From an uncultured Bacilli bacterium (GTDB lineage Bacteria; Bacillota_I; Bacilli_A; RF39; UBA660): DNA of 64,000 nt. The DNA is taken from NCBI GenBank assembly GCA_944358265.1, contig CALVQR010000001.1, forward strand, positions 5,042 through 69,041, written 5' to 3'. Shown in pieces: positions 1-62,121 of the stretch; the stretch's first letter is position 1, and every line of letters begins with the position of its first letter. The notes under the pieces are model-generated. The model saw only the letters and a program-made list of their open reading frames with translations. It was not told the origin of the DNA and ran no database searches. A program made the translations under genes and the position numbers.

Positions 1-433
1 CATTACAAATTGAATCGTTCAAATATCTTAACTGAGCTGTGGTTTGTCTACAACTATTAAACTTTTTACCATCAACAAATGAAACAGAATTAACAACAAA
101 ATGATTATGCAAACATTTCGTATTTAAATGCGTTGTAACAATCACTTCATACTTATCACCCCACATTTCATTTGCAAGTTGAATGCCAATTTCATGGGCT
201 TGGCTAGGACTAACTTCTCCTTCTTTAAATGATTGATATCCATGATATCCTAATACACCACCTGTTTTATTAAAACTCTTTTTAGTTCGATTCATTTGTT
301 CAAAAGCATATTTTTCATCGCAGTTAATTCCTGTTACAAAAAAAGACTTTTCTGTTTTATCTGTATTAGTTGCATAATTGATTGTCGATTGTAAGCTGTT
401 AAATGTTTTATCTTTATTTTTGACGTATTCCAT
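1..433 (-). CDS. Mobilization relaxase, MobA/VirD2-like relaxase domain. N-terminal part only; the gene runs off the window start.
   Basis: Reverse-strand translation from an ATG near 433 gives MEYVKNKDKTFNSLQSTINYATNTDKTEK...HLNTKCLHNHFVVNSV. This has the HxDTxHxHxHxV-like 3-His relaxase motif and an N-terminal INYxxNxxKTE block typical of Pfam Relaxase (PF03432) proteins. It lies 15 nt downstream of mobC. Confidence 0.75.
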   Translation of the reverse strand, partial: MEYVKNKDKTFNSLQSTINYATNTDKTEKSFFVTGINCDEKYAFEQMNRTKKSFNKTGGVLGYHGYQSFKEGEVSPSQAHEIGIQLANEMWGDKYEVIVTTHLNTKCLHNHFVVNSVSFVDGKKFNSCRQTTAQLRYLNDSICN

Positions 434-452
434 AGTAGATTTTAAGTTAGAA

Positions 453-815
453 TTAATTTTCCATAATTTTGTTACTGCTATATATATCACCAACTTTTTC
501 TAACTTAATTAACTTATTTATTTCTAAAATGTTTTTATCTAATTCGTCTTTATAACTATTTAAATATTTTTGATTAATATATCCTGTTTGATTTGCAATT
601 TTTGCTATCTGATTAATATTAACTCCTATTCGTCGCATTTCATTAATTAGATGAGATAATTTTAGATTAAGTCTAACATTTGGAATATATCCATCAATCA
701 TACCTCTTAAAAATTCAGATGGAGTTATTCCTAAATCATCACTCTTTTTTCTTAATTTTTGTAATTGTTCATAGCTTAATCTAAAATTAATTTGTCTTGT
801 CTTCACTTGATTCAT
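453..815 (-). CDS. mobC: Mobilization protein MobC (relaxosome accessory, ribbon-helix-helix-like)
   Basis: 120 aa with INFRLSYEQLQKL...GITPSEFLRGMI, matching the MobC family signature (RxxFRLTxxE...SEYIR). Sits immediately upstream of the relaxase. Confidence 0.7.
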   Translation of the reverse strand: MNQVKTRQINFRLSYEQLQKLRKKSDDLGITPSEFLRGMIDGYIPNVRLNLKLSHLINEMRRIGVNINQIAKIANQTGYINQKYLNSYKDELDKNILEINKLIKLEKVGDIYSSNKIMEN

Positions 816-934
816 AATTCACTTCTGATATCTCCACCATGTTTCTTTTACTTACAACACAAAGACACATTATAAAAACTCCAAATAGGACACCTATAAA
901 TAATCCAATTATAAAAAATAGCAATTCACTCATA
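812..934 (-). CDS. Small hydrophobic peptide (about 40 aa, one TM helix) translationally coupled to mobC
   Basis: Reverse-strand ORF MSELLFFIIGLFIGVLFGVFIMCLCVVSKRNNGGDIRSEL. Its stop overlaps the mobC start in an ATGA arrangement, and it has a GAAGG RBS-like motif upstream. Coordinates are approximate. Confidence 0.3.
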
Positions 935-973
935 TAATTACCTTCTTTCTTTCAAATTTATTTAAGGGGATTG

Positions 974-1019
974 GGGTGAAACCCCATATTAGGAAAATAT
1001 GCACACTTTTTTGTGTGCT
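974..1019. promoter_or_regulatory. Candidate oriT / relaxosome binding region: two short inverted repeats upstream of mobC
   Basis: GGGGTgaaACCCC (974-986) and GCACACttttttGTGTGC (1002-1019) form the only GC-rich hairpins in a 430-bp AT-rich non-coding gap 5' of mobC-relaxase. This is the usual oriT position in MobC/MobA modules. Confidence 0.35.
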
Positions 1020-1076
1020 ATACTTTTCCATTGCTTGCTATAAAACAAGAAAACATAATATTACACCCTAAATATT

Positions 1077-1244
1077 TAATCTTCATTAATATTTTTTATT
1101 TCAAAACTAATTTCTACTATGCTGTCATCAATTTCATCTAATAAAAAATCCATTGCAAGTTCCATCACTTCCAAATTATTTTCTGCTTCTAAAACAAATT
1201 CATTAACATTTTTAGATATTAATTTAACTAAATATTTGTTCATA
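1077..1244 (-). CDS. Small acidic hypothetical protein (about 56 aa)
   Basis: Reverse-strand ORF MNKYLVKLISKNVNEFVLEAENNLEVMELAMDFLLDEIDDSIVEISFEIKNINED. Tightly packed after the 1253..1579 gene. Coordinates approximate. Confidence 0.25.
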
Positions 1245-1252
1245 TAAAAACC

Positions 1253-1579
1253 TCATCTTTCTAATTTATTTTTATTTTTTCTTTCATAAGTTAAAGTTGA
1301 TAAATACTCATTTACAGATTCTCTTATGTCATCATTAATACCCAAATCATTTTTTAACCAATCATCATACAAAGTATCTAAAGGATATTCACATTTATTT
1401 AATTTCTTAATTTGTTCATCACTAAAATATCTTGAATTAGGATCAAAAAGATATGTAATTTCTTCTTTTATAGTTGTTTCATAAGATTTATCAATAATAT
1501 AAGTAGGTGTTTGTTTTTTTAAATTATTAATATATGCTTCATATTCTTTAGATATCTTTTCATATAATTTTTCTCTCAT
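1253..1579 (-). CDS. Hypothetical protein (108 aa) of the mobile module
   Basis: ORF track; no recognisable motif. Co-oriented and tightly spaced with the element ssb. Confidence 0.45.
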   Translation of the reverse strand: MREKLYEKISKEYEAYINNLKKQTPTYIIDKSYETTIKEEITYLFDPNSRYFSDEQIKKLNKCEYPLDTLYDDWLKNDLGINDDIRESVNEYLSTLTYERKNKNKLER

Positions 1580-1604
1580 ATTTTATTAATTAATAGAGAT
1601 GATA

Positions 1605-1958
1605 TTATCTATCATCTCTATCTGAATTATCTTTTTCTTGGGTACGACTTGACAAAAATGTTACTTTTTCAGCTACAATCACCATAGAATTTTTTCTTTC
1701 TCCATCTTTTTCGTAAGTATCAGTTTCAACTCTTCCTTTTACTCCAATTATGTCGCCTTTTTTACAATATTCTGCTGTGTTTTCAGCAATACCATTCCAT
1801 AATGTACATTTTATAAAATCTGTTTCATATACACCGTCTGCATTCTTATAATTTCTAGGAATAGCTAGAGTTATATTTGTTACTTTTTTCCCACTTTCTA
1901 ACTCATTAACTTCAGGATTTGAAGTTAATCTTCCTACTAATACTGTTTGATTCAACAT
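1605..1958 (-). CDS. ssb: Single-stranded DNA-binding protein, element-borne copy
   Basis: LVGRLTSNPEV...TDFIKCTLWNGIAEN...KKGDIIGVKGRVETDTYEKDGERK is a canonical SSB OB-fold. The acidic tail ends DRDDR without the usual terminal PF/IF. Confidence 0.8.
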   Translation of the reverse strand: MLNQTVLVGRLTSNPEVNELESGKKVTNITLAIPRNYKNADGVYETDFIKCTLWNGIAENTAEYCKKGDIIGVKGRVETDTYEKDGERKNSMVIVAEKVTFLSSRTQEKDNSDRDDR

Positions 1959-1960
1959 AT

Positions 1961-2275
1961 TTAATCACTCTCCTTTTTTATATATTTTTTTCTATTTTGA
2001 ATCAATTCTTCATAATAATTTTTTTGTATTTCTTTTTCTTCAATATTACATAATAATAAGAAAATAAGTTGTGATGCCTCAAATGGAAATAATCTTAATT
2101 CAGCACTTCCATCGTCTTTTAAGTATGTATATTTTATTAATTTATTATATAAGTTATTTGAGTTAATATCTTCTTCTTGAAAATCATCTTTACAATCTGT
2201 AAGATTTACTAGTTTATTAAAATAATTTTTATCCACTATTAATCGTATAGTTGGAACTTTTCTCTCTTTTTCCAT
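1961..2275 (-). CDS. Hypothetical protein (104 aa)
   Basis: ORF track; no recognisable motif. Confidence 0.4.
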   Translation of the reverse strand: MEKERKVPTIRLIVDKNYFNKLVNLTDCKDDFQEEDINSNNLYNKLIKYTYLKDDGSAELRLFPFEASQLIFLLLCNIEEKEIQKNYYEELIQNRKKYIKKESD

Positions 2276-2290
2276 TTTTATATCCTTTCT

Positions 2291-2920
2291 TTAAAAATCT
2301 TTTTTTTCAATTAAAGTTGCTATGAATACAACTTGTTTATTTGTTCCCGATATACAAGTTATCAATGATATATCGGATTCATTTGTTAGTTTTAAGCTAA
2401 TATTCCCAGTTTTATCTACCTCGTAAATATTAGTTATTTCATAAATATATTTAACATTGTTATAGTAAAAAAATATTTTATCTTTCATACCTAATTTATG
2501 TAATTTATTAAAATAAGCATTACTTGCGTTACCAGAGTGTCCTGCTAAAATTACATGACTATTGCTACTACTATTTGGAAAAATAGTTTCATCTAAGATT
2601 TCTACATTGTATTTAACATTATTAAGAGGATCAGTTATATCAACCAATCCTCTTTTAAAGTTAATTTTTGGTATTTCTAAGACTGCAATGTATGTAACTG
2701 TTGGTGTTTTTCCTACTTCCTGTTTTGTTTCTATGTTATTTATTTGTTCTTTTTCTTCTTCAAAAAAAACTTCAATTGCATTTTCTTCTTCAAGAAGCAA
2801 ATTTTTTTCAGATTCTTGTTTATTAATCCATAAAAAAAGACTCCCAACAATTAGTAGAAGTCCTATTCCAATAATTAATTTATTTTTTCTTTTTATTTTT
2901 AATAGTTTCATATATTCCAT
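2291..2920 (-). CDS. Sortase family transpeptidase (class B-like, N-terminal membrane anchor)
   Basis: N-terminal TM (LIIGIGLLLIVGSLFLWI), catalytic His context HVILAGHSG and TLxTC-type cysteine motif ISLITCISG. Immediately downstream of, and overlapping, a sorting-signal-bearing adhesin gene. Confidence 0.7.
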   Translation of the reverse strand: MEYMKLLKIKRKNKLIIGIGLLLIVGSLFLWINKQESEKNLLLEEENAIEVFFEEEKEQINNIETKQEVGKTPTVTYIAVLEIPKINFKRGLVDITDPLNNVKYNVEILDETIFPNSSSNSHVILAGHSGNASNAYFNKLHKLGMKDKIFFYYNNVKYIYEITNIYEVDKTGNISLKLTNESDISLITCISGTNKQVVFIATLIEKKDF

Positions 2921-5666
2921 AACCTAAGATTCCAATTCCACAAACAATGCCAATTACATATATAAAATCAAAAATACTTTTATTAGATTCAGTATTAGGA
3001 ACTTCTACTTTTAATTCATTAAGCATGGTCGCTTTAATTACTTCACCATTTTCTTTAATTTCAAAAGGCATTTTTTCAGTATTCAAAGTATAGCCCTCTG
3101 GGGCTTCTTTTTCTATGATATAGTACTTACCATATTTTAAATTTTCAATTACGATTTTACCTTTCTCATCAGTTCTACCACTAAACACTAATTCATTATT
3201 TTCAGTATATATTTCGATTAATGTGTTTGGTAGTGGGTTCCCTGTTGAAAAATCTAACTTTGTAAATTCTAATGTACCTTTAATTATTTCATCAGTCATA
3301 TTTGATTTAATAATTTCACCATCTTCTTTAATTTCAAAGTACATTTTTTCAGGATTTAAAAGATAACCCTCTGGGGCTTCTTTTTCTATGATATAGTACT
3401 TACCATATTTTAAATCTTCAATTATTACTTTACCATTTTCATCTGTTTTACCACTAAATATTAGTTTATCATTATCGGTATATACTTCAACTAATGTATT
3501 AGGTAATGGTTCTCCTGTTGAAATATCAGTTTTTGTAAATTCTAATATACCTTTTTTAAGTTTGTTAGTTAGATTTAATGATTCAGTCACAATTTCTGTT
3601 TTGTTATCAATTTCAGTTAATTCAATTTTATGTTCTTCTAAATCAATAACATATCCATCGATAGTTTTTGTTTCTTTTACTACGTATCTGCCTAAGAACA
3701 AGTCATTAAAAATGGCTTTACCGTCTTTATTTGTAACAACTGTTTGAATTAAATCTCCCTTTTTATAATGAAGAACACCATCTAAAGTAATTATATCTTC
3801 ATCAGCATATAACGAAAATTCTATATTTTCTAATTTTAAATTATTATCATAATGAAAACTATTATCTTCAATTATAAATGTTTCACCAGTTTTTTCTATT
3901 TCAATTTTACCCTTTATTTTTTTATTAGAAAATTTAACTTCAATATATTGACCAAAATCGTCATCATCAACTATATTTGAGTTTTCATCAATATTAAAAA
4001 TAACTCCATCTGTATTAATAACATAACCATCAGGAGTTGTTAGTTCTTCAATTTTATAACTACCACTATTTAAAGGATAAGCTGTAATAAACTCTCCATT
4101 TTCATCTGTTTTAAATTCACAAATTGTTTCTTTATCTGGATATGTAACATTTTGACAAACATAATCATTTGTTTTTAAATTTTTAATTTTAAAAGTAACC
4201 CCTTTAAAAGGAATAGAAAGTCCAGAATCCTCATCAACTTTCACTAATTTTAATTTTGCAGTGATTTCTGCATTAGAGAAAACCTTATTAATAGTTTTAC
4301 CTTCTTCACGAACTTCAAAGTGATAATCTTCAATCATTTCGTATCCAGATGTAGTAGTTAATTGTTTTAAAACATAACTTCCATATGGCAATGTAAAATA
4401 TAACTTTCCTTCTTCATCAGTTATATCTTCAAAAACTTTTTCTCCACTAGAATCATATATAGCAAATTTAGCGCCTACTTCTGGAGTCATAATTTCAGTT
4501 TTATCAGTCGCATAAACCTTTGTAAATTCAAAACTTCTCTTTATTACTTCCTCAAAGACGTCAACATTAACTAATAAATGATTTTCATCAATTGTAAAAT
4601 TATATTTTTGTGTATCTAGTGTATAACCTAAACTCGGTGTTATTTCTCTTAGATAGAACTTACCTAATTTAGGTAAATAATCGCTTATTGCATAAGAATT
4701 CTCATCTGTTGTCAAAGTAGTAATCAATTCATCACTTGAGGCATCATATACCCCATATATCGCTCCTTTTAATGTTGCCTCTCCTTGAGGCTTTACTGTT
4801 CCATTATCGACATCTTTTTTTATAATTTCCACTTTACCGCCCACTACTTTTAAATTGATTTTATAACTTATTGGATCATAAGAACCAACACGCATAACAT
4901 TTTGAGTGTTTTCTTTAAAATACACAACTGGAGGTGTACTATATTTTGTATCAGATTTTGTTAAAGTTATCTGACCATTTCCTACACCAGTTGCTTTAAT
5001 GCTTAATGAATTATCACTAATACTCGCATTTACATTAGATTGATTAGAAACTTTAAAATTATTTAATACACCGTTACTGTCGTTTAAAGTAATTGTATTT
5101 CCAATTGGAATAGTAATATTAGATGTATTAAAATTAGGTGCTTTATAATGATTAGCTACTAAGCTTTCAATTTCAGCGATTTCCGAAGCATATAACCCAT
5201 CATTTCTTGTTCCATTTAACCCATTTGTGAAATAAAAATCTCCATTTGGCTCTGCTGTTCTCCAAATTAATATTTGCGTGATATAATACCATTTTGCATC
5301 ATTATGATTTCCATATGAATAGCCATAATAAGCCAACAAACTAATTCTATCCCATTGCTCTTTTGACATGTTTAAAACCAATTCGTAGTCATCCCTAGCT
5401 ACATTATAAACATAATTATTATCAATGTTTACAAAAGGTTGCAAACAATAAACAAACGCATTATCTTCACTACGTCTTAGAAATCGTCCTTGTTGGTAAT
5501 GAACTTTCCCATTTGGTTCTACCTTATTAATATAAATATTTGGAATATATTCACTTGGCCATATTGCTTGACCAATATATTGTTCCGCATTAACTGTAGT
5601 CATACCAGTTAGTGCTATAAATCCAGTTAAAATAACTGAAAATAAAAACATTAATTTCTTTTTCAT
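2880..5666 (-). CDS. Cell-wall-anchored surface adhesin: signal peptide, N-terminal thioester-domain-like module, tandem Cna-B/prealbumin-like repeats, C-terminal sorting signal
   Basis: Signal peptide MKKKLMFLFSVILTGFIALTGMTTVNA. Candidate thioester pair Cys74 in VYCLQPF and Gln131 in YITQILIW (TQxxxW motif). Two near-identical repeats of about 90 aa (GTLEFTK(T/L)D(I/F)STG(E/N)PLPNTL...KYGKYYIIEKEAPEGY). C-terminus VPNTES, then hydrophobic stretch, then KNKKKK. Confidence 0.7.
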   Translation of the reverse strand: MKKKLMFLFSVILTGFIALTGMTTVNAEQYIGQAIWPSEYIPNIYINKVEPNGKVHYQQGRFLRRSEDNAFVYCLQPFVNIDNNYVYNVARDDYELVLNMSKEQWDRISLLAYYGYSYGNHNDAKWYYITQILIWRTAEPNGDFYFTNGLNGTRNDGLYASEIAEIESLVANHYKAPNFNTSNITIPIGNTITLNDSNGVLNNFKVSNQSNVNASISDNSLSIKATGVGNGQITLTKSDTKYSTPPVVYFKENTQNVMRVGSYDPISYKINLKVVGGKVEIIKKDVDNGTVKPQGEATLKGAIYGVYDASSDELITTLTTDENSYAISDYLPKLGKFYLREITPSLGYTLDTQKYNFTIDENHLLVNVDVFEEVIKRSFEFTKVYATDKTEIMTPEVGAKFAIYDSSGEKVFEDITDEEGKLYFTLPYGSYVLKQLTTTSGYEMIEDYHFEVREEGKTINKVFSNAEITAKLKLVKVDEDSGLSIPFKGVTFKIKNLKTNDYVCQNVTYPDKETICEFKTDENGEFITAYPLNSGSYKIEELTTPDGYVINTDGVIFNIDENSNIVDDDDFGQYIEVKFSNKKIKGKIEIEKTGETFIIEDNSFHYDNNLKLENIEFSLYADEDIITLDGVLHYKKGDLIQTVVTNKDGKAIFNDLFLGRYVVKETKTIDGYVIDLEEHKIELTEIDNKTEIVTESLNLTNKLKKGILEFTKTDISTGEPLPNTLVEVYTDNDKLIFSGKTDENGKVIIEDLKYGKYYIIEKEAPEGYLLNPEKMYFEIKEDGEIIKSNMTDEIIKGTLEFTKLDFSTGNPLPNTLIEIYTENNELVFSGRTDEKGKIVIENLKYGKYYIIEKEAPEGYTLNTEKMPFEIKENGEVIKATMLNELKVEVPNTESNKSIFDFIYVIGIVCGIGILGYGIYETIKNKKKK

Positions 5667-5675
5667 AAACCCTCC

Positions 5676-5700
5676 TTAAATTTCTCTAAAAAAAAGAACC
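5676..5700 (-). terminator. Rho-independent terminator after the 5703..6335 gene
   Basis: The reverse strand reads CAACCCtaaGGGGTTC followed by T8. Confidence 0.5.
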
Positions 5701-5702
5701 CC

Positions 5703-6335
5703 TTAGGGTTGTAATTCAAAAAACTCAAAATCTTCTCCTAAATATTTTCCTGAGTAACTTACTACATTGTTACATTTAAAACCTCCACTGTGTGTTTGCA
5801 AATATTCATTACCGTATTCTTGGCATTTTAATAAACAGTCATTTTCGTTTGAACAATATTTACTTTCATCTAAATTAATACCAAAATCTACTGTTTGCCA
5901 TTTCCATGCTGGGGAATTATAATAATCATATTCTGATATTCCCAATTTTTCCCACTCTTTTAATTCTTTTGAAGGTGTTGTAACATCCTCTGAAATACTA
6001 TTTGAAGAAATATTTTCATTTTTTTCACTTTTATTTATTATTTTATCATTTTTGTTAGTACTAGGCTGCTCTTGTATAGAATCATTATTTTCATTTTCTT
6101 TAATATTAATATCTTTGTCATTGTTTTGATTATCATTTAAATTATTTTCTTTATCTTCATCAGCTTTAATTATTTCTTTACTAGGTTTTTCATTAATTGT
6201 CAAATCAGATATATTACTTTTATTATCCTTTAAATAAAAGACATATATAAAACAGCTAACAATTATTACCAAGATAACTAAAATCATTATAATAACCTTC
6301 TTCATATTTCCACTCCTTTTTAAATTATATAGCAT
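5703..6335 (-). CDS. Membrane-anchored hypothetical protein with N/D/K-rich low-complexity linker and Cys-rich C-terminal domain
   Basis: N-terminal TM (VIIMILVILVIIVSCFIYVFYL). C-terminal region has six Cys (CSNENDCLLKCQEYGNE...FKCNN). Confidence 0.5.
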   Translation of the reverse strand: MLYNLKRSGNMKKVIIMILVILVIIVSCFIYVFYLKDNKSNISDLTINEKPSKEIIKADEDKENNLNDNQNNDKDINIKENENNDSIQEQPSTNKNDKIINKSEKNENISSNSISEDVTTPSKELKEWEKLGISEYDYYNSPAWKWQTVDFGINLDESKYCSNENDCLLKCQEYGNEYLQTHSGGFKCNNVVSYSGKYLGEDFEFFELQP

Positions 6336-6362
6336 AATAATTTATAAATTAAAAATATGTGA

Positions 6363-7190
6363 TTATCTTTCTCGATCATCTTTTTTCATGTTATTAAAAG
6401 TTTTAAGATTATCATTCCAATATTTATCATCATTTAACCAATCATAGTCATCATCATAAAGTGGAGAATCATTTTCAAATTTTTTAAAATTTAAATCTAA
6501 AGCCGACTTAAAATATCCATATTTATTTACAATTTCATTACCATCTTCATCTTTAAATTTATTACTTTTTACTTTATTAACAATATAATGAATTGACATG
6601 AATAACTGTTCTCTAGTATAACCTCTATTCAAGTAGTCACTAAATAAATTATCATAATAATTTAGATTATACTCATTACTATTTACATATCCATTTTTTA
6701 TTAATTCTTTTGTAAATATTGAATATTCATCACTATGTGATGTTTTATCTATTTTATCTATTAATTTATTAGTATTTATTATATTAGTATTTAATTGTTG
6801 TTGATTTTCCAATGTTGGACTATCCATAGGTGGAAAATCACATGTTGGATTGTTTTGACTCAAATACAAACTTTTAGGAAGATCATATACTATATATTTA
6901 TAAGTAAATAATCCTTTATTATCTTTTTGTTTTATTATTTCAATATATCCAGCATTTTTTAATTCATTTATTGCTGTTCTTATAGCCGAATAACTTTCCT
7001 TACATATGGATACTAAACCGTTAAATGAATAATCCCAATTTGGAGGTAAACTTATCATTTTACATAATAATCCAATTGATTTTAATGAAAGATTTTTATC
7101 ACGTAATATCTGATTGTTAACAATCGTAAAATTATTACTTCTCTTTATTTGAAATTCTGTTTTGTTGTTCATTTTTATACCTCCAATCAA
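6363..7190 (-). CDS. Putative plasmid/phage replication initiator (winged-HTH N-terminal domain)
   Basis: FTIVNNQILRDKNLSLKSIGLLCKMISL...SYSAIRTAINELKNAGYIEI resembles the HTH_36-type N-terminus of Firmicute Rep/DnaD-like initiators. Positioned between the partition genes and the cargo. Confidence 0.45.
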   Translation of the reverse strand: MIGGIKMNNKTEFQIKRSNNFTIVNNQILRDKNLSLKSIGLLCKMISLPPNWDYSFNGLVSICKESYSAIRTAINELKNAGYIEIIKQKDNKGLFTYKYIVYDLPKSLYLSQNNPTCDFPPMDSPTLENQQQLNTNIINTNKLIDKIDKTSHSDEYSIFTKELIKNGYVNSNEYNLNYYDNLFSDYLNRGYTREQLFMSIHYIVNKVKSNKFKDEDGNEIVNKYGYFKSALDLNFKKFENDSPLYDDDYDWLNDDKYWNDNLKTFNNMKKDDRER

Positions 7191-7210
7191 AAAAAGAGCT
7201 TGCCACAGCT

Positions 7211-8158
7211 CTATCTTTCACACTTATCACGTTCTTTTAGATGCCTACCATAAAATTCGCACGCTTTTATAACAAAGTCCTCATAATTATTTATCCTAAT
7301 ATTTTTGGGTACAACACTGCGAATTTTGTCTTCACTCAATTTGATTTTGGGGACTTGATTAGGTTTTTCTTGTTCCATAATTTCTCGTATTTTTTCTTCA
7401 TTAAGATTATTAGAATCACTTAATTTTCTAAATTCAATTGTTTGGGCATGACTGGGAGTTGATTCAGTATATCCAATAGAATCCAAAACTAACAATTGTT
7501 CATCCTTCTTTAAATATGATAATTCTACAGCTGGTCTTAGAGCTATAGATGGTGATTCTCCTAAAACAGAATTATCTACCATTTGCAATAATTCTGGAAT
7601 AAGTTCATTTAACCTAATATATCTATATACTTGGTTTTTACTTTCCCCAGCTTCTGCGCCTATTAATTCAGATGACAACTTATTTCCCACTGGGGAAGAA
7701 GTTAAATCTTGACGACTACCTTGATGTTTTATGGCATCAAGTTTCATTTTATATGCTTTTGCTTTTTCACTTGGTAAAATGAATTCACGATGCATATTTG
7801 AATCAACCATATAAATAATTGCTTCGTCATCTGACATATTTCTAACAATACATGGTATTGATTTGTTTCCAATAAGTTCTGAAGCTCTTTTTCTTCTATG
7901 ACCAGATATTATTTCATAACGTTCACCTTTTTCTCTTACAATAATAGGTTCTAGTACACCATTAGCATTAATACTCTCTTCCAATTTCCTAAGTTCATCA
8001 TTTTCTATCACTTTAAACGGATGATTTGGAAAACAATCAATCATAGATAGATCAATATTTTCTATCTTTTCTTTTTGTTTATCATCACGTTGCTCTTGTG
8101 TAGTAAAGAAATCATCTAGATTGAAATTGGGACGATCTATGTTGCTCTTTTTGTCCAT
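7211..8158 (-). CDS. parB: ParB-like partition/nuclease-domain protein (element copy)
   Basis: GVLEPIIVREKGERYEIISGHRRKRASELIG...IVRNMSDDEAIIYMVDSNMHRE is the ParB/Spo0J N-terminal box. Overlaps the parA 3' end. Confidence 0.8.
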   Translation of the reverse strand: MDKKSNIDRPNFNLDDFFTTQEQRDDKQKEKIENIDLSMIDCFPNHPFKVIENDELRKLEESINANGVLEPIIVREKGERYEIISGHRRKRASELIGNKSIPCIVRNMSDDEAIIYMVDSNMHREFILPSEKAKAYKMKLDAIKHQGSRQDLTSSPVGNKLSSELIGAEAGESKNQVYRYIRLNELIPELLQMVDNSVLGESPSIALRPAVELSYLKKDEQLLVLDSIGYTESTPSHAQTIEFRKLSDSNNLNEEKIREIMEQEKPNQVPKIKLSEDKIRSVVPKNIRINNYEDFVIKACEFYGRHLKERDKCER

Positions 8159-8942
8159 CTTCTAATACCTCTTTTGCAAAATTATTATAAGCTAAAGATA
8201 CTTTACTATTTTTATCATATGATAGAATACTTTCTCCTTGAGAAGTTGATTCTGCAACTTTAATTGCTCTAGGAATTTGTGTATTAAATAATTTAAATAC
8301 ATTACCATATGTTTCAGATAATTCTTTTCTAATATTTTTGGCTAAGTTTGTTCTTTCATCAACTAATGTTAATAAAATACCACCTACTTTTAAATCAGGA
8401 TTTATCTGTTTTCTAACTTTTAATACGGTTTGTAGTAAATGTCCCATACCCTTTGTAGCAAGAAATTGAGATTGAACAGGAATTATTACTTTATCTGAGC
8501 AAGCTAAGGCATTTATCGTAACCATACCAAGTGAAGGCATACAATCAATTAAAATATAATCGTACTTATCTTTTAGAGAACTTATTGAGTTTTTCATCGT
8601 ATATTCTCTACTCATTGCATTTACTAGACTAACTTCCATAGAAGATAATTCTAGATTTGCTGGAATAACATCTAATCCTTCAGCATGATGCAGTATAGCT
8701 TCATCAGCTTTTACTTCTCTATCAGAAACCGTTCTTTCCATAAGAGTTGCAATTGTAATAGGTATTTCATCCGTATTGTGCCATCCCATATAAGTTGTCA
8801 AATCACCTTGCGGATCTGCATCAATCAATAGCACCCTCTTACCTTTATTAGCAAGTGCCACTCCTAAACTAAAAGTTGTTGTTGTTTTTCCTACTCCTCC
8901 TTTTTGATTAGCAATAGCAATAACTTCACATTTCGGCATCAT
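8112..8942 (-). CDS. parA: ParA/Soj-type partition ATPase (element copy)
   Basis: Deviant Walker A KGGVGKTTTTFSLG and DADPQGDLT. Start moved to MMPKCEV, which sits behind an AGGAGGTGA RBS. Confidence 0.85.
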   Translation of the reverse strand: MMPKCEVIAIANQKGGVGKTTTTFSLGVALANKGKRVLLIDADPQGDLTTYMGWHNTDEIPITIATLMERTVSDREVKADEAILHHAEGLDVIPANLELSSMEVSLVNAMSREYTMKNSISSLKDKYDYILIDCMPSLGMVTINALACSDKVIIPVQSQFLATKGMGHLLQTVLKVRKQINPDLKVGGILLTLVDERTNLAKNIRKELSETYGNVFKLFNTQIPRAIKVAESTSQGESILSYDKNSKVSLAYNNFAKEVLEDGQKEQHRSSQFQSR

Positions 8943-9002
8943 TTCACCTCCTTTCTTTATATTTCCCACTTATCCACCCATTTTTTAATAAAAAAATTAA
9001 AA

Positions 9003-9030
9003 AAAAAAAGCACTTTAATCGTGCTAATAA
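9003..9030 (-). terminator. Rho-independent terminator after the 9032..9346 gene
   Basis: The reverse strand reads AGCACgattaaaGTGCT followed by a T11 run. Confidence 0.45.
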
Positions 9031-9031
9031 A

Positions 9032-9346
9032 TTATTTATAATAATTAAAATCAGATTTTTCCCATATGGATTCAAATTCATTTTCTATTTCATCTAAACT
9101 CATATTTTCAATTGCATACATATGAATTTTTATCCAATAATTATTTTTCTGTGTTCTAATAAGAAACTCATAATTATTTCTATCATATAATTCATATTCG
9201 TAAACATCAATATAATATTTAATTCCTTTTTTATCACTAATTTTTTTTTGGAAATATCTATTAGCATATGGTTCAACTTTAGGAACATCATATTCTATAT
9301 ATCCTGCATTAAATAGTACTTTAGCATTCATGTTATCACCTTTCAA
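9032..9346 (-). CDS. Hypothetical protein (104 aa)
   Basis: ORF track; overlaps the upstream metallophosphoesterase gene by 11 nt, so likely an operon. Confidence 0.45.
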   Translation of the reverse strand: MKGDNMNAKVLFNAGYIEYDVPKVEPYANRYFQKKISDKKGIKYYIDVYEYELYDRNNYEFLIRTQKNNYWIKIHMYAIENMSLDEIENEFESIWEKSDFNYYK

Positions 9347-10043
9347 ATTTTTTAATACTTTTGAAAATAAACTCTAATTTATCAATTTGTTTTTCTATAT
9401 GCCAATGTCCACAATACCATTTATCGTAATTTATTATTTCCTCTAATTGATTTAAAAATATTTCCATTTTCTTATCAATTTTTAATTGATTAAAGGCATA
9501 TATAAAGTTATCTTGTGGTTCATATTTTAATGGACAAGTATGAGATAATATAATATCGACATGTTTTCCTTTATATTTCTTTATTATATAATCTTTTTCT
9601 TCTTCTTTTAGCTGCTCATCTTTAAACCATTTATATCCATGTGTAATCCTATAATTTTTATCAACAGAATAAGCTCCTCCAACTACTAAAACGCTTTTAT
9701 TATCAATGTTATATAACTCACCATTTTTTGCAAATATTAAATTAGGATATTTATCTTCAATATAAACGTTTCCTCCAAACATTTTAGTTTCATGATAATT
9801 ACTTATATTTTCTGGTCTTTCCTCATGATTCCCTTGAATAAAAAAGATTTTTAGACTATACAAACTTAAAAATTCCTTTAAGCGATTGTCATGTTCGTTT
9901 AAAAAGTAATTAACTCCTGCATCCCCGAGAATAATAAGCATATCATCTTTTGAAATTTTTAAATTATTTAATCTCGAGAAATCTCCATGGGTGTCACCAG
10001 TAATATAAATCATAGTATCAACTCCATATTCACTATAAAACAA
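9336..10043 (-). CDS. Calcineurin-like metallophosphoesterase
   Basis: MIYITGDTHGD, ILGDAGVN, GNHE and GHWH motifs of the metallophosphatase fold. Confidence 0.65.
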   Translation of the reverse strand: MFYSEYGVDTMIYITGDTHGDFSRLNNLKISKDDMLIILGDAGVNYFLNEHDNRLKEFLSLYSLKIFFIQGNHEERPENISNYHETKMFGGNVYIEDKYPNLIFAKNGELYNIDNKSVLVVGGAYSVDKNYRITHGYKWFKDEQLKEEEKDYIIKKYKGKHVDIILSHTCPLKYEPQDNFIYAFNQLKIDKKMEIFLNQLEEIINYDKWYCGHWHIEKQIDKLEFIFKSIKKFER

Positions 10044-10109
10044 ATAAAAATAATATACAAATGTACAAAAAAACTAGTTTTCTACTAGTTTTACTTAACT
10101 TCAATCATG

Positions 10110-10400
10110 TTAGCCGAGGCAAGAGCATTCAGCACCTCCTGCATTCAAGTGGTTAGATATTACTAGTACATCAGGTGAGTTACCATAAGCACTTAATATT
10201 CTATTAACTCTTTCATTTGGAGTTAATGTTTCATCAACTTGTCTAATTAAGGTAGAATTAACTCCTAATTCTTTAAAGCGATTATTTAAATACTCTGCTA
10301 TTTTTAAAGCATATTCTTTCTCAACAATACCATTGCCACTAGCACCTGGATCGCTTCCCCCATGCCCAGCATCAATAACTATTTTTACATTATTATTCAT
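10110..10400 (-). pseudogene. N-acetylmuramoyl-L-alanine amidase (Amidase_3) catalytic domain, C-terminally truncated
   Basis: VKIVIDAGHGGSDPGA...VLVISNHLNAGGAE is the N-terminal half of a CwlD/Amidase_3 domain. The ORF stops about 80-100 aa short of a complete domain, exactly where plasmid-type gene content begins. Confidence 0.55.
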
Positions 10401-10606
10401 AAAATCCTCCTCAAAGTATTTTATGATAAATGTCTATTTTTGCTATTAATTACATAAAAAAATTATAATTTTTACCCAATAAATCTAAAATTTTATATTT
10501 AGTGTTTTAATATAAATTATCATAAGAATTAAAAATTGACGATACATATAATAATTTTAGTTCTAAAATCCATATATTTTTTTAAAACTATTATAAATAA
10601 ATTCTA

Positions 10607-11296
10607 TTAATTTAATTTGTTTAACAATTCAAGCATAACATTTGCAATTTTTTTAGAACTATCTGCTAAGAAGTCTTCATAAGTGATTACATTATTATTA
10701 TTAGGTGTATCTGATATACTTCTAATTACTAAAAAAGGAATATTGCTTAAATAACATACTTGTGCAATAGAAGCACCTTCCATTTCAACACATAATGCAT
10801 TAAATTTATTATTTATTTTTTTACCCATTATATAATCTGTACAAAATATATCTCCTGATGCAATTACTCCACTGACTACATTAACATTATTAAAAGATAT
10901 TGATTTTGCCAATTTTACCAGATATTCATCAGAATCTATATATACTCCTACACCTGGAATATATCCTTTTTCATGATCAAAAGCAGTAATATCAAAATCA
11001 TGTTGTACTAATTTTTCGCCTATTACTATATCCCCAACATTTAATTTATCTGACACACTACCCGCCACACCTATATTAAATATATAATCAACCTTTATAT
11101 TATCAATTAATATTTGAGTACATCTTGCAGCATTTACTTTTCCTACACCACTTTCTACCATAACAACATAAATATTATTAATAAATGCTTCATAAAAAGT
11201 CAAATCAAATATAGTATATTCTTTTTTTATAATTAAGTATTTCTTTAATTCTAAAAGTTCTTCATTCATTGCAAATATTATCCCAACTTTTTTCAT
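10607..11296 (-). CDS. mtnN: 5'-methylthioadenosine/S-adenosylhomocysteine nucleosidase
   Basis: KVGIIFAMNEELLELK...GVAGS...FLVIRSISD is the Pfs/MtnN family. Start moved to MKKVGII behind a GGAGGA RBS. Confidence 0.8.
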   Translation of the reverse strand: MKKVGIIFAMNEELLELKKYLIIKKEYTIFDLTFYEAFINNIYVVMVESGVGKVNAARCTQILIDNIKVDYIFNIGVAGSVSDKLNVGDIVIGEKLVQHDFDITAFDHEKGYIPGVGVYIDSDEYLVKLAKSISFNNVNVVSGVIASGDIFCTDYIMGKKINNKFNALCVEMEGASIAQVCYLSNIPFLVIRSISDTPNNNNVITYEDFLADSSKKIANVMLELLNKLN

Positions 11297-11392
11297 ATTA
11301 ATCCTCCACACATGTATATTATAACTTATTATTTATAGATTTTACAAAAAAATATTTTACTGATATAATATGTAAGCAAAGAGGGATAAATT

Positions 11393-12112
11393 ATGAAAAA
11401 TAAATTAACCAAAAAAAGTTTATTATTAATGCTTATGCTTTCACTACTTAATGCATCTGCTTGTAAAAATAATAATTCTAACATAAATACACAGACAACA
11501 ACTGAAAGTATTACTGAAACTATTCAAGATGAAACAACAACTCAAATACCTACAACTGAATCCACTACGGAAGATATTATAACTACAGAGTCTACTATAG
11601 AAAATATTATAACTACAGAGTCTACTACAGAACAATCAATAAATAATGATGATATAGTTATAACAAATATAGACTCAGATAAAGAAGAAATAGAATATTA
11701 TTTATCTGAAGATCCTATTAATATGACTATGTTAGGAGAAAAATCAAAAGCATTCTTTATAAAATGTGTTGATTTTATATTTTATGATAGTGAAATAAAT
11801 GGTGTTACTTTTAAAGAATTATCAGATGAAGCAAAAGAAGATATATATACTACTTTTTGTTATATAGATGAATTAGTAGTAGTATATTTTCCAAATTATA
11901 AAGAAAATATTTCTGAAAAATATACTATAGTTAAAGACTTCACTAAAAAATCTTATTTTTATGTACTTGATAAAATAAAAGAAGCAATTGGAGAAAACAA
12001 TTATGAAAAAATAAAAGAAATAAAAGATAGTGTTATAGATACCGTATCAGATACATATGAAAATACTAAAGAAAAAGTAAAAGAATGGTATGAAGATTTT
12101 AGATCAAATTAA
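11393..12112 (+). CDS. Lipoprotein with Thr/Glu-rich repeat linker
   Basis: Lipobox LLNASAC, then ITTESTTEDIITTESTIENIITTESTTEQ repeats. Confidence 0.6.
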   Translation: MKNKLTKKSLLLMLMLSLLNASACKNNNSNINTQTTTESITETIQDETTTQIPTTESTTEDIITTESTIENIITTESTTEQSINNDDIVITNIDSDKEEIEYYLSEDPINMTMLGEKSKAFFIKCVDFIFYDSEINGVTFKELSDEAKEDIYTTFCYIDELVVVYFPNYKENISEKYTIVKDFTKKSYFYVLDKIKEAIGENNYEKIKEIKDSVIDTVSDTYENTKEKVKEWYEDFRSN

Positions 12113-59735: not shown

Positions 59736-60142
59736 TTACATCATCTCCTAACAAGATATTTAATATCTATATTATATCACGAAAAAAGTCGCATTTTTTT
59801 GCAACTTATATTTCTAAATCAAAGTCATCATGATCTTTATGTTTATTATCTTCTTTACTCCAATTATAATCTTCTTTTATGTCATCTATGGTTTTATCAC
59901 TAAATATCCTATGTTCGTATAAGCCTTTTGAAAATTTTTAATAATCTTCACGTTCTTTGTCTTTGACGAATATTTTATGTTTGATAAAATTGATTAATCT
60001 ATCAAATAAATCTTTAAAGTAATCTACTAGTTCTTCAAGATGCTTATTATCTTTTTTTAACTCTTTAATCTCTTTATTTTCGATATTTTTTGATAAAGTA
60101 TCTACTTTAAGAGATATTGCTTCATTGTTTTCGGTTAGTATT

Positions 60143-60608
60143 TTAATTTTTTATTTTCCAATTTTCTAAAGTATTATTTATGTGCTTTAAATTGTATGTT
60201 CCATTAAGAATTGCATTCTTAACTGCATATCTTGTTATTTCGTTATCTTCCCATTTGGAAATGTATTTATATTCAGTTGGACTTAACAGTCTTCCAAATT
60301 CTTGCTCTATATAACTATAAATATTAATATTATCCATTATTCTTATATTCTTCTATTGTGGTTATTTCGTTGGTTGAAATTAAGTGTTTTATTGCTGTTC
60401 TTATCTCTTGCTCTGACAAACCTAATTCTTTAGATAATTGTTTTCTACTTGTTACAAAACTACCTCTTGAAGCTTCTATCCCCCTAAACAAACCATCTTC
60501 CCAATTTGCTTTTAATATGCAATGAATGAATACTGCTTTTGTATTTACATCTGTATACCCTTCCCAATTGAGAAATTTATTATGAATTTTTATCCAACTT
60601 TCATTCAT
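60143..60608 (-). pseudogene. Phage replisome-organiser / DnaD-domain gene split by a frameshift
   Basis: 60330..60608 encodes a wHTH N-part (FVTSRKQLSKELGLSEQEIRTAIKHL). 60143..60337 encodes a DnaD C-domain (YIEQEFGRLLSPTEYKYISKWEDN...AVKNAILNG...NTLENW). The two ORFs overlap by 8 nt in different frames. Confidence 0.55.
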
Positions 60609-60857
60609 TGTCTTTTTCCTTTAATAAAATTTGAATTTTGTTCGTTCTTAAGCTATAATTAATTAATATTTTATTTTTAAAATACTAATTTATTTATTGA
60701 ATTATCTACTTTCAATTGTGGTTGGTTGTGTAGATAATTCTTTTTTTCGTCTATTTGTTATGCATTTATACACATTAATATAAATCAAAAAACACCTGTT
60801 ATTACTAATAATATATATCCTAGCATCTCTTTTCTCACTTTTTGATCCGCATCCTTT

Positions 60858-61025
60858 CTATAATCCCAAAACATGTTTTTCAAAATATTGTATTGGTATT
60901 CTTTTCCCTATGATAATTACATTAGGATTTTCTTTTTTCATTTGATTTTGTAGTTTTTCTATTATTCGATAACATTTTGTTTCCCCATATCCTGTAATTT
61001 TCATTATGTCTTTTACTCCATACAT
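60858..61025 (-). CDS. Small HTH_17/excisionase-family DNA-binding protein
   Basis: MYGVKDIMKITGYGETKCYRIIEKLQNQ...VIIIGKRIPIQYFEKHV behind a GGAGGG RBS. Coordinates approximate. Confidence 0.45.
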   Translation of the reverse strand: MYGVKDIMKITGYGETKCYRIIEKLQNQMKKENPNVIIIGKRIPIQYFEKHVLGL

Positions 61026-61110
61026 TTTTTATCCCTCCTCATAAAATTTTGTCCAGTCAAAATTAAATGTTCCCCACTAGTCTTTTTGTTGTGTAAACAC
61101 TACATTCCCC

Positions 61111-61270
61111 TTAAAAAAAATAACGCCTATATCACAATTTAGGAATTTTTCAAGTTTTAACATTGTTTTACTTTCAATATTATCTAAAGAATTAGTTTCA
61201 ATCATAGATATTGTTGATCTAGATACCCCAGATTTTATTGAAAGAGCTTCTTGGCTTAAACCTTGTTTTT
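61111..61270 (-). CDS. Cro/XRE-family HTH protein lacking a canonical start codon (possible pseudogene)
   Basis: Reverse frame encodes ...NNRIKEFRQKQGLSQEALSIKSGVSRSTISMIETNSLDNIESKTMLKLEKFLNCDIGVIFF. There is no in-frame ATG/GTG/TTG between the upstream stop and the HTH, despite a GGAGG RBS nearby. Confidence 0.4.
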
Positions 61271-61386
61271 GTCTAAATTCTTTGATTCTATTATTCCTTT
61301 TTACCTCCTATCTCTATGTTAATCATACACTACACTTTTTTACTTTGTCAACAGTAAACAACAATTTCTTTATTTTTTCCTTGAAT

Positions 61387-61410
61387 AATTGTAAAGTATG
61401 TATTACAATT
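61387..61410. promoter_or_regulatory. Candidate operator: perfect 8-bp inverted repeat AATTGTAA-N8-TTACAATT between divergent Cro-like and CI-like genes
   Basis: Lies about 20 bp upstream of the CI-like gene start (61432) within TTGAAT...TACAAT promoter-like hexamers. Confidence 0.4.
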
Positions 61411-61431
61411 GTCGTAAAGGAGATGTTTTGT

Positions 61432-62121
61432 ATGAATTACATAGGTAGCTTTATAAAAAATTATAGAGGTGATATGTCTCTAAGAGAATTTGCTGATAAA
61501 TGTGGAATTAGTCATACACATTTAGATAGTATCGAAAAAGGATTCGACCCTAGGACTGGAAAACCTGTAAGAGTAACGGTTGATACATTAAAAAAAATAG
61601 CATCTGCTATGAATATGTCTGTTAATGATTTGTTAATTCAATCTGGTGACGTTAAATTAGAAGAATTAAATTTTGACAATGCAGAACTGGTTTCGCCAAT
61701 AAAAGAAAGTATAAAAATACCTGTATTAGGTAAAATTCCTGCAGGAATGCCTTTTGAAGCAATAGAAGACCAATATACAATTGATTTTGAAGAAATACCC
61801 TATTCTTGGTTAAAAGGAGGAAATCAATTTTTTGCTTTAAAGTTAGATGGTGACAGTATGGAACCAGAATATCACAACAATGATATAGTTATTTTTAAGA
61901 AAACAAACACATGTAAATCTGGTCAAGATTGTTGTATAAAAATAAATGGGTATGATGCTACATTTAAAAGAGTAAAAAGACAAGAAAATGGAATTATGAT
62001 TATTCCACTTAACGAAAATAATTCAACAGGTTTTACTGCTACTTTTTATACAAACGAAGATATAATAAATAAACCAATAGAAATTATTGGAGTTGTCAAA
62101 CAAATAAGAAGAAATATTTAA
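61432..62121 (+). CDS. CI/LexA-like repressor: XRE HTH plus S24 peptidase domain
   Basis: N-terminal HTH (MSLREFADKCGISHTHLDSIEKG), C-terminal S24 motif LKLDGDSMEPEYHNNDIVIFKK and Lys in TFKRVKR. Start trimmed to MNYIGSF behind an AAGGAG RBS. Confidence 0.75.
   Translation: MNYIGSFIKNYRGDMSLREFADKCGISHTHLDSIEKGFDPRTGKPVRVTVDTLKKIASAMNMSVNDLLIQSGDVKLEELNFDNAELVSPIKESIKIPVLGKIPAGMPFEAIEDQYTIDFEEIPYSWLKGGNQFFALKLDGDSMEPEYHNNDIVIFKKTNTCKSGQDCCIKINGYDATFKRVKRQENGIMIIPLNENNSTGFTATFYTNEDIINKPIEIIGVVKQIRRNI

Follow-up and report, generated by a model that had tools for sequence, protein, structure and literature searches.

A thioester-domain adhesin, its sortase and a membrane protein encoded beside conjugation genes in uncultured gut Bacilli: a candidate unit for mating-pair formation

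The window analysed here is a 64,000-nucleotide stretch of contig CALVQR010000001.1, from the assembly GCA_944358265.1 of an uncultured Bacilli bacterium, with a G+C content of about 25% across its whole length, and all coordinates below are positions within it. Near its start, in the visible part of a conjugative element, lies a gene for a predicted surface adhesin with a class II thioester domain (TED), which is preceded by a gene for a small membrane protein and overlapped at its 3' end by a gene for a sortase. We propose that this unit probably acts in the conjugation of the element itself, the adhesin being displayed on the donor cell and anchored to its wall by the co-encoded sortase. 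The features of the locus are as follows, a slash marking a predicted cleavage site.

1 to 10428, reverse strand: visible part of the conjugative element, from Pfam matches; it continues beyond window position 1
5703 to 6335, reverse strand: upstream membrane protein of 210 amino acids, with a transmembrane helix at its N-terminus, a low-complexity linker that varies, and a conserved C-terminal domain (about 85 amino acids, two conserved Cys)
2880 to 5666, reverse strand: adhesin gene, an open reading frame (ORF) of 928 amino acids with signal peptide, class II TED, six CnaB-type domains and C-terminal sorting signal
5586 to 5666, reverse strand: signal peptide, residues 1-27 (MKKK, hydrophobic core, VNA/EQ), read from the sequence
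4842 to 5585, reverse strand: class II TED, residues 28-275, from the structural model, Foldseek and phmmer
5445 to 5447, reverse strand: codon of Cys74 (YCLQ), the predicted thioester Cys, aligned with Cys296 of the Staphylococcus aureus protein SaTIE
5262 to 5276, reverse strand: TQILIW (Gln131 to Trp135), the TQxxΦW motif beside the predicted thioester, aligned with TQMLIW of SaTIE
4902 to 4904, reverse strand: codon of Gln255 (ENTQNVM), the predicted thioester Gln, aligned with Gln467 of SaTIE
3006 to 4841, reverse strand: six CnaB/SpaA-type stalk domains, from Pfam SpaA, with boundaries from a self-derived hidden Markov model (self-HMM)
3011 to 3556, strand not applicable: 273-nucleotide tandem DNA repeat in two copies, corresponding to stalk domains 5 and 6, from a repeat search and Tandem Repeats Finder (TRF)
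2883 to 3002, reverse strand: cell-wall sorting signal, VPNT (residues 889-892)/ESNKS, hydrophobic segment and KNKKKK, read from the sequence
2291 to 2920, reverse strand: dedicated sortase of 209 amino acids (Pfam Sortase PF04203, E 1.1e-14)
2537 to 2539, 2354 to 2356 and 2333 to 2335, reverse strand: sortase active-site residues His128, Cys189 and Gln196, from family conservation and hhalign

The adhesin gene has a ribosome-binding site (GGAGG) 8 nucleotides upstream, and cleavage of its signal peptide between VNA and EQ would follow from an AxA-type rule. Pfam places the TED family PF08341 at residues 72-151 (26.9 bits, where the cut-off is 22) and SpaA/CnaB-type (prealbumin-fold) domains in six further stretches (E 2.5e-87), and more than 1000 homologues of the adhesin were found, some of them named 'Cys-Gln thioester bond-forming surface protein' by NCBI. 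An earlier note on this DNA, made from the sequence alone, had described the product as a thioester-domain/CnaB adhesin, and this description stands on both the Pfam matches and the model described below (pLDDT 90, with class II TEDs as its top folds); the strings which it quoted, VYCLQPF (with Cys74), YITQILIW (with Gln131), VPNTES (residues 889-894), KNKKKK and, in the sortase, LITC (as SLITC), were all found in the ORFs.

Residues 70-289 match the S. aureus TIE TED structure 6fx6 (E 1.1e-11, phmmer against solved structures), and an AlphaFold model of residues 28-290, computed with 27 diverse homologues, has a mean predicted local distance difference test (pLDDT) score of 90.3. The top Foldseek match of this model was again SaTIE-TED 6fx6 (E 3e-14, template-modelling scores 0.69/0.76), with BaTIE 6fwv and EfmTIE86 6fwy next (E ranging from 3e-14 to 1e-5), and identity to the three is only 8-21% over the Foldseek structural alignments. 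As these are the three known class II TED structures (PMC6194298) and are also the best solved matches of the model, the domain is a class II TED and the TED fold is confirmed by structure prediction; the adhesin is a further member of the TIE/class II TED adhesins.

In class II TEDs the bonding Cys lies in a [YFL]CΦζ motif and the bonding Gln in a weak ΦQζΦΦ motif, while a third element, TQxxΦW, contributes a Gln which adjoins the thioester in the solved TEDs without forming the bond; in SaTIE the thioester is Cys296-Gln467 (PMC6194298). In the adhesin described here Y73-C74-L75-Q76 fits the motif of the bond-forming Cys, T130-Q131-I-L-I-W135 fits TQxxΦW, and Gln255, in T-Q-N-V-M, is the counterpart of the bond-forming Gln. 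Alignment to SaTIE brings Cys74 onto Cys296, TQILIW onto TQMLIW and Gln255 (NTQNV) onto Gln467 (NAQKV), and Cys74, Gln131, Trp135 and Gln255 are invariant in 120/120 homologues. Because Cys74 and Gln255 align with the SaTIE pair and are invariant, they are the predicted bond, and Cys74 most likely pairs with Gln255 and not with Gln131, the Gln that the earlier note had taken for its partner and which corresponds to the non-bonding Gln of TQxxΦW. Closeness of Cys74 and Gln131 in a structure does not discriminate between the two pairings, since Gln131 would be expected near Cys74 regardless.

The stalk that follows has self-HMM domain boundaries at residues 276-376, 377-470, 471-585, 586-705, 706-796 and 797-887. 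A Lys is aligned in the first strand of each of domains 1 to 6 (IIKK, FTKV, LVKV, IEKT, FTKT and FTKL respectively), an acidic residue is aligned in an x-E-x-x-x-x-G-Y segment, and Asn or Asp is found in the last strand, an arrangement of Lys, Glu and Asn/Asp which gives Lys-Asn/Asp isopeptide bonds in CnaB domains (PMC8092201). Stalk domain 2 (4257-4538, residues 377-470) has a Gln (YVLKQLTTTSGY) where the other five have Glu. This Glu is thought to catalyse isopeptide formation in CnaB-type domains, and the cross-link may be absent from domain 2.

Domains 5 and 6 are encoded by a tandem DNA repeat which is real and far above chance, but not near-identical as had been proposed. The copies (3011-3283 and 3284-3556, the lower end lying some 40 nucleotides from where it had been placed) are identical at 222 of 273 nucleotides (81%, direct count), and TRF gives a period of 273, 1.9 copies, 84% matches and a score of 762; the encoded copies (residues 706-796 against 797-887) are identical at 64 of 91 residues (70%). 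The longest exact run between the DNA copies is 49 nucleotides, and this could allow occasional unequal recombination. Variation in repeat number, which the note had expected from recombination, held at one scale and not at the other: across the family the number of stalk domains runs from 4 to 11 (six in 149/194 proteins), and it clearly changes over longer times, but copy-number polymorphism was not seen among the six recorded contigs with this exact protein (including L001 and L002, contigs from other samples described below), all of which encode the same 928 residues.

The C-terminus of the adhesin is tripartite, with the VPNTE motif, about 25 hydrophobic residues and KNKKKK, and this layout is common to 107 distinct family C-termini, with 29-38 residues after the Thr in nearly all of them. 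Val was found at the first position in 99 of these, Pro at the second in all 107, Asn at the third in 87 and Thr at the fourth in all 107, while the residue before Val was E, K or D in 101/107. The residue after Thr was E in 39, D in 13, N in 12, L in 11, G in 11, S in 8, F in 4 and M in 4, with others making up the remainder, so VPNTE cannot be kept as a fixed motif and appears to be one case of a family signal [E/K]-V-P-N-T-x in which the residue after Thr is apparently unconstrained. The consensus L-P-x-T-G is departed from at both ends (of the 107 C-termini, 99 have Val first and only 11 have Gly fifth), and an NCBIfam scan of the adhesin gave no match to a cell-wall-anchor (LPXTG-type) domain model; the sorting signal is thus of a non-LPXTG kind, as the note had recognised. 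A literature search for VPNT, VPNTG and VPxTG sorting motifs found no description of VPNT, the nearest being VPDTG of the pneumococcal pilin RrgC. The adhesin was the only ORF with a sorting signal found when others were sought in the window and in L002.

The sortase likely starts at Met4 (2909-2911), as family alignment suggests, and it consists of an N-terminal membrane helix, a disordered acidic linker and a compact catalytic domain of about 130 amino acids (from about residue 79 to 208), with SLITC as its Cys motif where the family has TLITC. Of the NCBIfam models only the generic TIGR01076 passed its cut-off, the class-specific models falling below theirs (class C at 62 bits against 160, class D at 58 against 140 and at 41 against 165), while the best PDB sequence/profile matches were to pilus-type class C enzymes (24rr, 53 bits), then class D and then class A. 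The fold model has a pLDDT of 74.6, higher in the catalytic domain, and fits structures of classes A, C, D and E with similar strength (E near 1e-8); more than 120 solved sortase chains are among its matches. A class-B-like enzyme had been suggested by the note, but no class B sortase appeared in the NCBIfam matches, in the PDB sequence/profile matches or in the top 50 fold matches, and with its catalytic domain of only some 130 amino acids the protein resembles the compact class A/C/D/E enzymes instead. A DP[FWY] lid motif is missing from its sequence, and so is a membrane anchor at the C-terminus, the protein ending 20 residues after the Cys. A conserved aromatic pair is found in residues 48-55 (about 2756-2779; IEVFFEE), with Phe52 being F or Y in 137/142 representatives of the family; the pair closes the membrane-proximal helix, ahead of the disordered linker, in a part where the model is unconfident, and it could have a lid-like role.

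A full-database profile search for this sortase family, counted in clusters of 50% identity, gave 400 with E <= 1e-30 and 1192 with E <= 1e-10. Among 142 representatives with at most 50% identity to one another, conservation is 100% for His128, 99% for Cys189, 99% for Gln196 and 69% for Lys195, and the Gln196 column holds Gln in 140/142 and Arg in one. All sortases are said in a review to have a His-Cys-Arg triad (PMC8225981). In this family the close homologues aligned in A2 share no invariant Arg, and in the 142 representatives Arg does not dominate the column at the triad position. Alignment with S. aureus SrtA by hhalign equates His128 with His120, Cys189 with Cys184 and Gln196 with Arg197 (the canonical numbering of the three SrtA catalytic residues being reproduced), and the profile alignment gives a β7-β8 loop six residues shorter than in SrtA, strand β8 of the model starting at residue 195, where the Arg sits in SrtA. 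Gln therefore appears, from these alignments, to replace the canonical catalytic Arg throughout the family. Lys195 was also considered as the Arg substitute, being invariant in the 20 non-redundant close homologues of A2, with Arg in 2/120 close homologues, but it was rejected because the wider set favours Gln196 and hhalign puts Gln196 on SrtA Arg197. A literature search for natural sortases without the catalytic Arg returned nothing relevant.

It is possible, and we put it forward tentatively, that the enzyme represents an unrecognised sortase class, marked by His-Cys-Gln in the active site, a shortened β7-β8 loop, the lack of a lid and VPNT/x substrates whose residue after the cut is free. 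Such a class would be dedicated to anchoring the thioester adhesins that conjugative elements encode, and would be common across uncultured gut Bacilli. A bolder form of this proposal is that the sortase joins the adhesin to the upstream membrane protein and not to peptidoglycan, which would make a three-part mating adhesin.

The three genes form a conserved unit, as their arrangement across loci shows. The membrane-protein gene is directly upstream of the adhesin gene (within 200 nucleotides) in 75/82 loci, and the C-terminal domain of its product has the consensus WExLGISEYDYY..PMWSW...C..G...FSC..INSYSG.YLG, with no convincing Pfam or NCBIfam match to the protein. The sortase ORF overlaps the 3' end of the adhesin gene by 41 nucleotides here (32 if counted from Met4), and by 23-59 nucleotides in 70/75 loci with a complete adhesin 3' end. 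Adhesin and sortase are fused in frame in three independent records, P0020, P0043 and L009 (the L009 adhesin ORF has 1229 amino acids), in the order adhesin, IPKT/L, membrane helix, KKKQNKK, sortase membrane helix and sortase domain, a topology that is right for both parts. The dedicated adjacent sortase claimed by the note is thus supported by the overlapping genes and the natural in-frame fusions. In the window the A-rich stretch at 2880-2920 is read in one frame as the KNKKKK tail of the adhesin and in a second as the cytoplasmic N-terminus of the sortase, rich in Lys and Arg (MKLLKIKRKNK), and the fusions may reflect either loss of the stop codon and frame offset in a lineage or an assembly frameshift in the A-rich overlap. 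Two terminator-like hairpins with T-runs, seen as consensus matches only, lie on the reverse strand at 5697-5710, between the membrane-protein and adhesin genes, and at 2837-2864, inside the 5' end of the sortase gene just after the adhesin stop codon; the two may set the relative expression of the three genes.

The element around the unit has the gene order Amidase_3 fragment, metallophosphatase, ParA, ParB, HTH_36, membrane protein, adhesin and sortase, followed by a small unknown protein, SSB, DUF3848 and NikA/MobC. Two contigs from other samples with an identical adhesin (L001 and L002) extend it to a relaxase (PF03432), DUF3801, a VirD4-type coupling protein, TrbC-like and TrbL_2 proteins and ArdC. 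L001 is 98.6% identical to window positions 1-10428 and then runs into unrelated flanking genes, and because it diverges there the element is mobile, with its right end near 10428; the note's placing of the adhesin on a mobile element is thereby confirmed. The last gene of the element is a 96-amino-acid Amidase_3 fragment (10110-10400) which looks truncated. A tRNA integration site was sought, and no tRNA was found in the window. A near-identity search of window positions 1-12000 against the PLSDB plasmids returned nothing, so the element is not a known plasmid.

Relatives were looked for in one genome per species, giving 545 loci, 80 of which were retrieved. Each of these 80 is from a gut-associated genome of an uncultured organism, the usual labels being Bacilli, 'Tenericutes', 'Mollicutes' or Clostridium sp. 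CAG:1193, and ParB and SSB genes were common neighbours of the unit. Besides the backbone in the window, two more were found, both with more distant family members: in one the neighbours of the unit are genes for a type IV secretion system (T4SS) pilin-like protein, a VirB6-like protein, VirB4 and an M23 peptidase, and in the other they are VirB6-like (TrbL_4), VirB4, M23 peptidase and MobL relaxase genes, together with a faint NikA-like match. In all three backbones examined for neighbours the unit adjoins type IV secretion or relaxase genes on the same strand. The note had regarded the adhesin as cargo of the mobile module; its place beside these genes in each backbone speaks instead for a part in conjugation itself. 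TED homologues at a greater distance (25-30% identity) were also found in the transfer regions of Enterococcus plasmids, 12/26 of which were typed as conjugative, and one of them, on a plasmid typed as non-mobilizable, lies between PrgN-region genes and genes for an LPXTG protein and an M23 peptidase.

Some of the retrieved loci (L010, L013, L019, L020, L046 and L061) stand out by their genome bins, which carry the names Bacteroides, Bacteroidaceae, Bacteroidales or Muribaculaceae; mis-binning of the contigs is the most likely cause, and not carriage across phyla. The metagenome-assembled genome RGIG8542 has four separate loci with different family members (L024, L027, L042 and L047), a pattern suggestive of one host with several related conjugative elements, unless the bin is a mixed one.

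On balance we favour, as the probable function of the unit, that of a mating-pair-formation adhesin of the conjugative element, displayed on the donor and anchored in its wall by its own sortase. The adhesin would be exported via Sec, and its N-terminal class II TED would form the internal Cys74-Gln255 thioester, reactive with a nucleophile on the target surface. The six CnaB-type domains, with their Lys, Glu and Asn-or-Asp positions for isopeptide bonds (Gln for Glu in domain 2), would provide a rigid stalk, and the C-terminal signal would keep the protein in the membrane until the co-encoded sortase cut after Thr892 of VPNT and linked it to the cell wall. So displayed, the adhesin would stabilise the contact between donor and recipient, as experiments showed for the class II TED adhesin of pLS20. 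We take the unit for part of the transfer machinery, and not for cargo, because it holds the same place beside transfer genes in backbones with different relaxases. Its reading as a donor-surface mating adhesin follows from that position together with the precedents of pLS20, of Gram-positive adhesins and of the pCW3 sortase SrtD. Gram-positive conjugation systems are without pili and use wall-anchored adhesins for mating-pair formation (PMC12857230).

Several points weigh against this proposal. Formation of the thioester, cleavage at VPNT and the role in conjugation are all predicted from sequence, the Cys74-Gln255 pairing, most likely as it is, drawing on alignment and conservation. The sortase is without the Arg regarded as universal and its activity cannot be assumed, and of the 75 complete loci five have no separate sortase ORF (one has a fusion, and in four none was detected nearby). 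The parallel with pLS20 is incomplete, since its adhesin does without both a sorting signal and a sortase. Finally, the adhesin may bind host or mucus components, perhaps in addition to acting in mating, as TEDs of streptococcal pathogens bind host fibrinogen and the carriers are gut bacteria.

This last point leads to the principal rival explanation, under which the adhesin is cargo that binds a host or mucus component covalently and is a colonisation trait with no role in DNA transfer. TEDs of S. pyogenes do target host fibrinogen (PMC6194298), and all homologues of the adhesin come from animal or human gut metagenomes, but cargo genes usually vary between related elements, whereas this unit keeps the same position beside transfer genes across backbones with different relaxases and T4SS sets. 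The genome with four separate copies, each in its own locus, also speaks against cargo, as does pLS20, which is an experimental precedent for a role in conjugation; we therefore consider host-adhesion cargo unlikely. The two remaining explanations, an unprocessed anchor and pilus formation, are less likely rivals than host or mucus binding.

Loss of the catalytic Arg and a sorting motif that departs from LPXTG would also be expected if the sortase were an inactive relic and the adhesin were simply held by its C-terminal membrane helix, the sorting signal going unprocessed. Against this, His128, Cys189 and Gln196 are conserved at 99-100% in the 142 representatives, VPNT is kept while its neighbours vary, and the overlapping genes and fusions are maintained; since all of this points to a working enzyme-substrate pair under selection, we regard a relic as improbable. 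That the adhesin is a pilus subunit, polymerised by a class-C-like sortase or joined by it to a Lys of the upstream membrane protein, is likewise improbable, for although the sortase has its best sequence-profile matches among pilus-assembly enzymes of class C and a conserved second extracellular protein is encoded immediately upstream, a YPK-type pilin motif was sought in the adhesin and none was found, the sortase has neither the DP[FWY] lid motif nor the C-terminal membrane anchor, the element has a single sorting-signal protein, and sortases of classes A, C, D and E match equally by fold.

The mating adhesin proposed here has its closest known parallel in TIEpLS20 (p34), a class II TED adhesin encoded in the conjugation operon of the Bacillus subtilis plasmid pLS20, which is needed for efficient transfer in liquid and whose TED Cys is essential (PMC8092201). 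Both proteins have a signal peptide, a class II TED, a CnaB-type stalk and a gene inside a conjugation cluster. TIEpLS20 has no sorting signal, however, and sortases of pLS20 and of its host are not needed, whereas the adhesin described here carries all three parts of the signal and is encoded with a sortase of its own, a contrast drawn from separate accounts of the two; the family described here is also, unlike TIEpLS20, confined to uncultured gut Bacilli. With SaTIE, BaTIE and EfmTIE86 the adhesin shares the fold class, the YC-Φ-ζ motif, the β-hairpin Gln, the TQxxΦW motif, the CnaB stalk and sortase anchoring (PMC6194298), but BaTIE, unlike it, carries an LPXTG signal. A conjugation role for SaTIE, BaTIE or EfmTIE86 was not reported in the literature covered. 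PrgB, the aggregation substance of pCF10, is likewise a wall-anchored adhesin of a Gram-positive conjugation cluster which promotes mating-pair formation, but its polymer-adhesin domain binds lipoteichoic acid non-covalently and it is LPxTG-anchored (PMC12857230), in contrast to the predicted covalent TED head and element-encoded sortase described here.

For the sortase, SrtD of the Clostridium perfringens plasmid pCW3 offers a parallel as an element- or plasmid-encoded sortase tied to conjugation genes, being needed for efficient conjugative transfer according to Revitt-Mills et al. 2021 as cited in a review (PMC8225981). The sortase described here differs from it in scoring 41-58 bits against class D cut-offs of 140-165, in having no catalytic Arg and in its VPNT-x substrate. 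Class C sortases have a lid and polymerise pilins, features that were not seen here. Some of the class C pilus sortases have V-P-x-T-G substrates, such as S. pneumoniae RrgC with VPDTG (PMC5640630), which resemble the present signal in having Val first and Pro and Thr at positions 2 and 4, but in those the Gly after Thr is kept, whereas here that position is free.

The literature searched did not turn up any account of a dedicated, element-encoded sortase whose catalytic Arg is replaced by Gln, of a VPNT-x signal in which the residue following Thr is free, of the conserved upstream membrane protein or of the abundance of this unit in uncultured gut Bacilli. How Gram-positive donors catch their recipients is poorly understood, few mating adhesins having been studied and one thioester adhesin, that of pLS20, having been tied to conjugation; a predicted covalent-binding head in a very common family of gut mobile elements (545 matches, sometimes several per genome) therefore bears on gene flow in the gut. 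If the sortase is active it would widen sortase chemistry and might serve as a ligation enzyme with a different recognition motif, and both sortase substrates with no need for Gly after the cleavage site and an enzyme without the Arg regarded as universal would be of separate interest.

The host region of the window encodes a D-Ala-D-Ala carboxypeptidase and a LysM-G5-M23 protein, so a peptidoglycan acceptor for the sortase should exist and the host very likely has peptidoglycan. A wall-less host, as the labels 'Mollicutes' and 'Tenericutes' of some homologues' genomes might imply, was considered and is very unlikely given the D-Ala-D-Ala carboxypeptidase, LysM/M23 and Amidase_3 proteins of the window. 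Between 31504 and 36448 on the reverse strand lie genes for a protein of 984 amino acids with leucine-rich repeats and a C-terminal type I dockerin and for a neighbour of 662 amino acids with four cadherin-like domains; dockerin-bearing surface proteins were unexpected in a gut Bacilli genome of 25% G+C. At about 60000-62000 the gene orientation changes from minus to plus and the GC skew from negative to positive, which is the pattern expected of a chromosomal replication origin.

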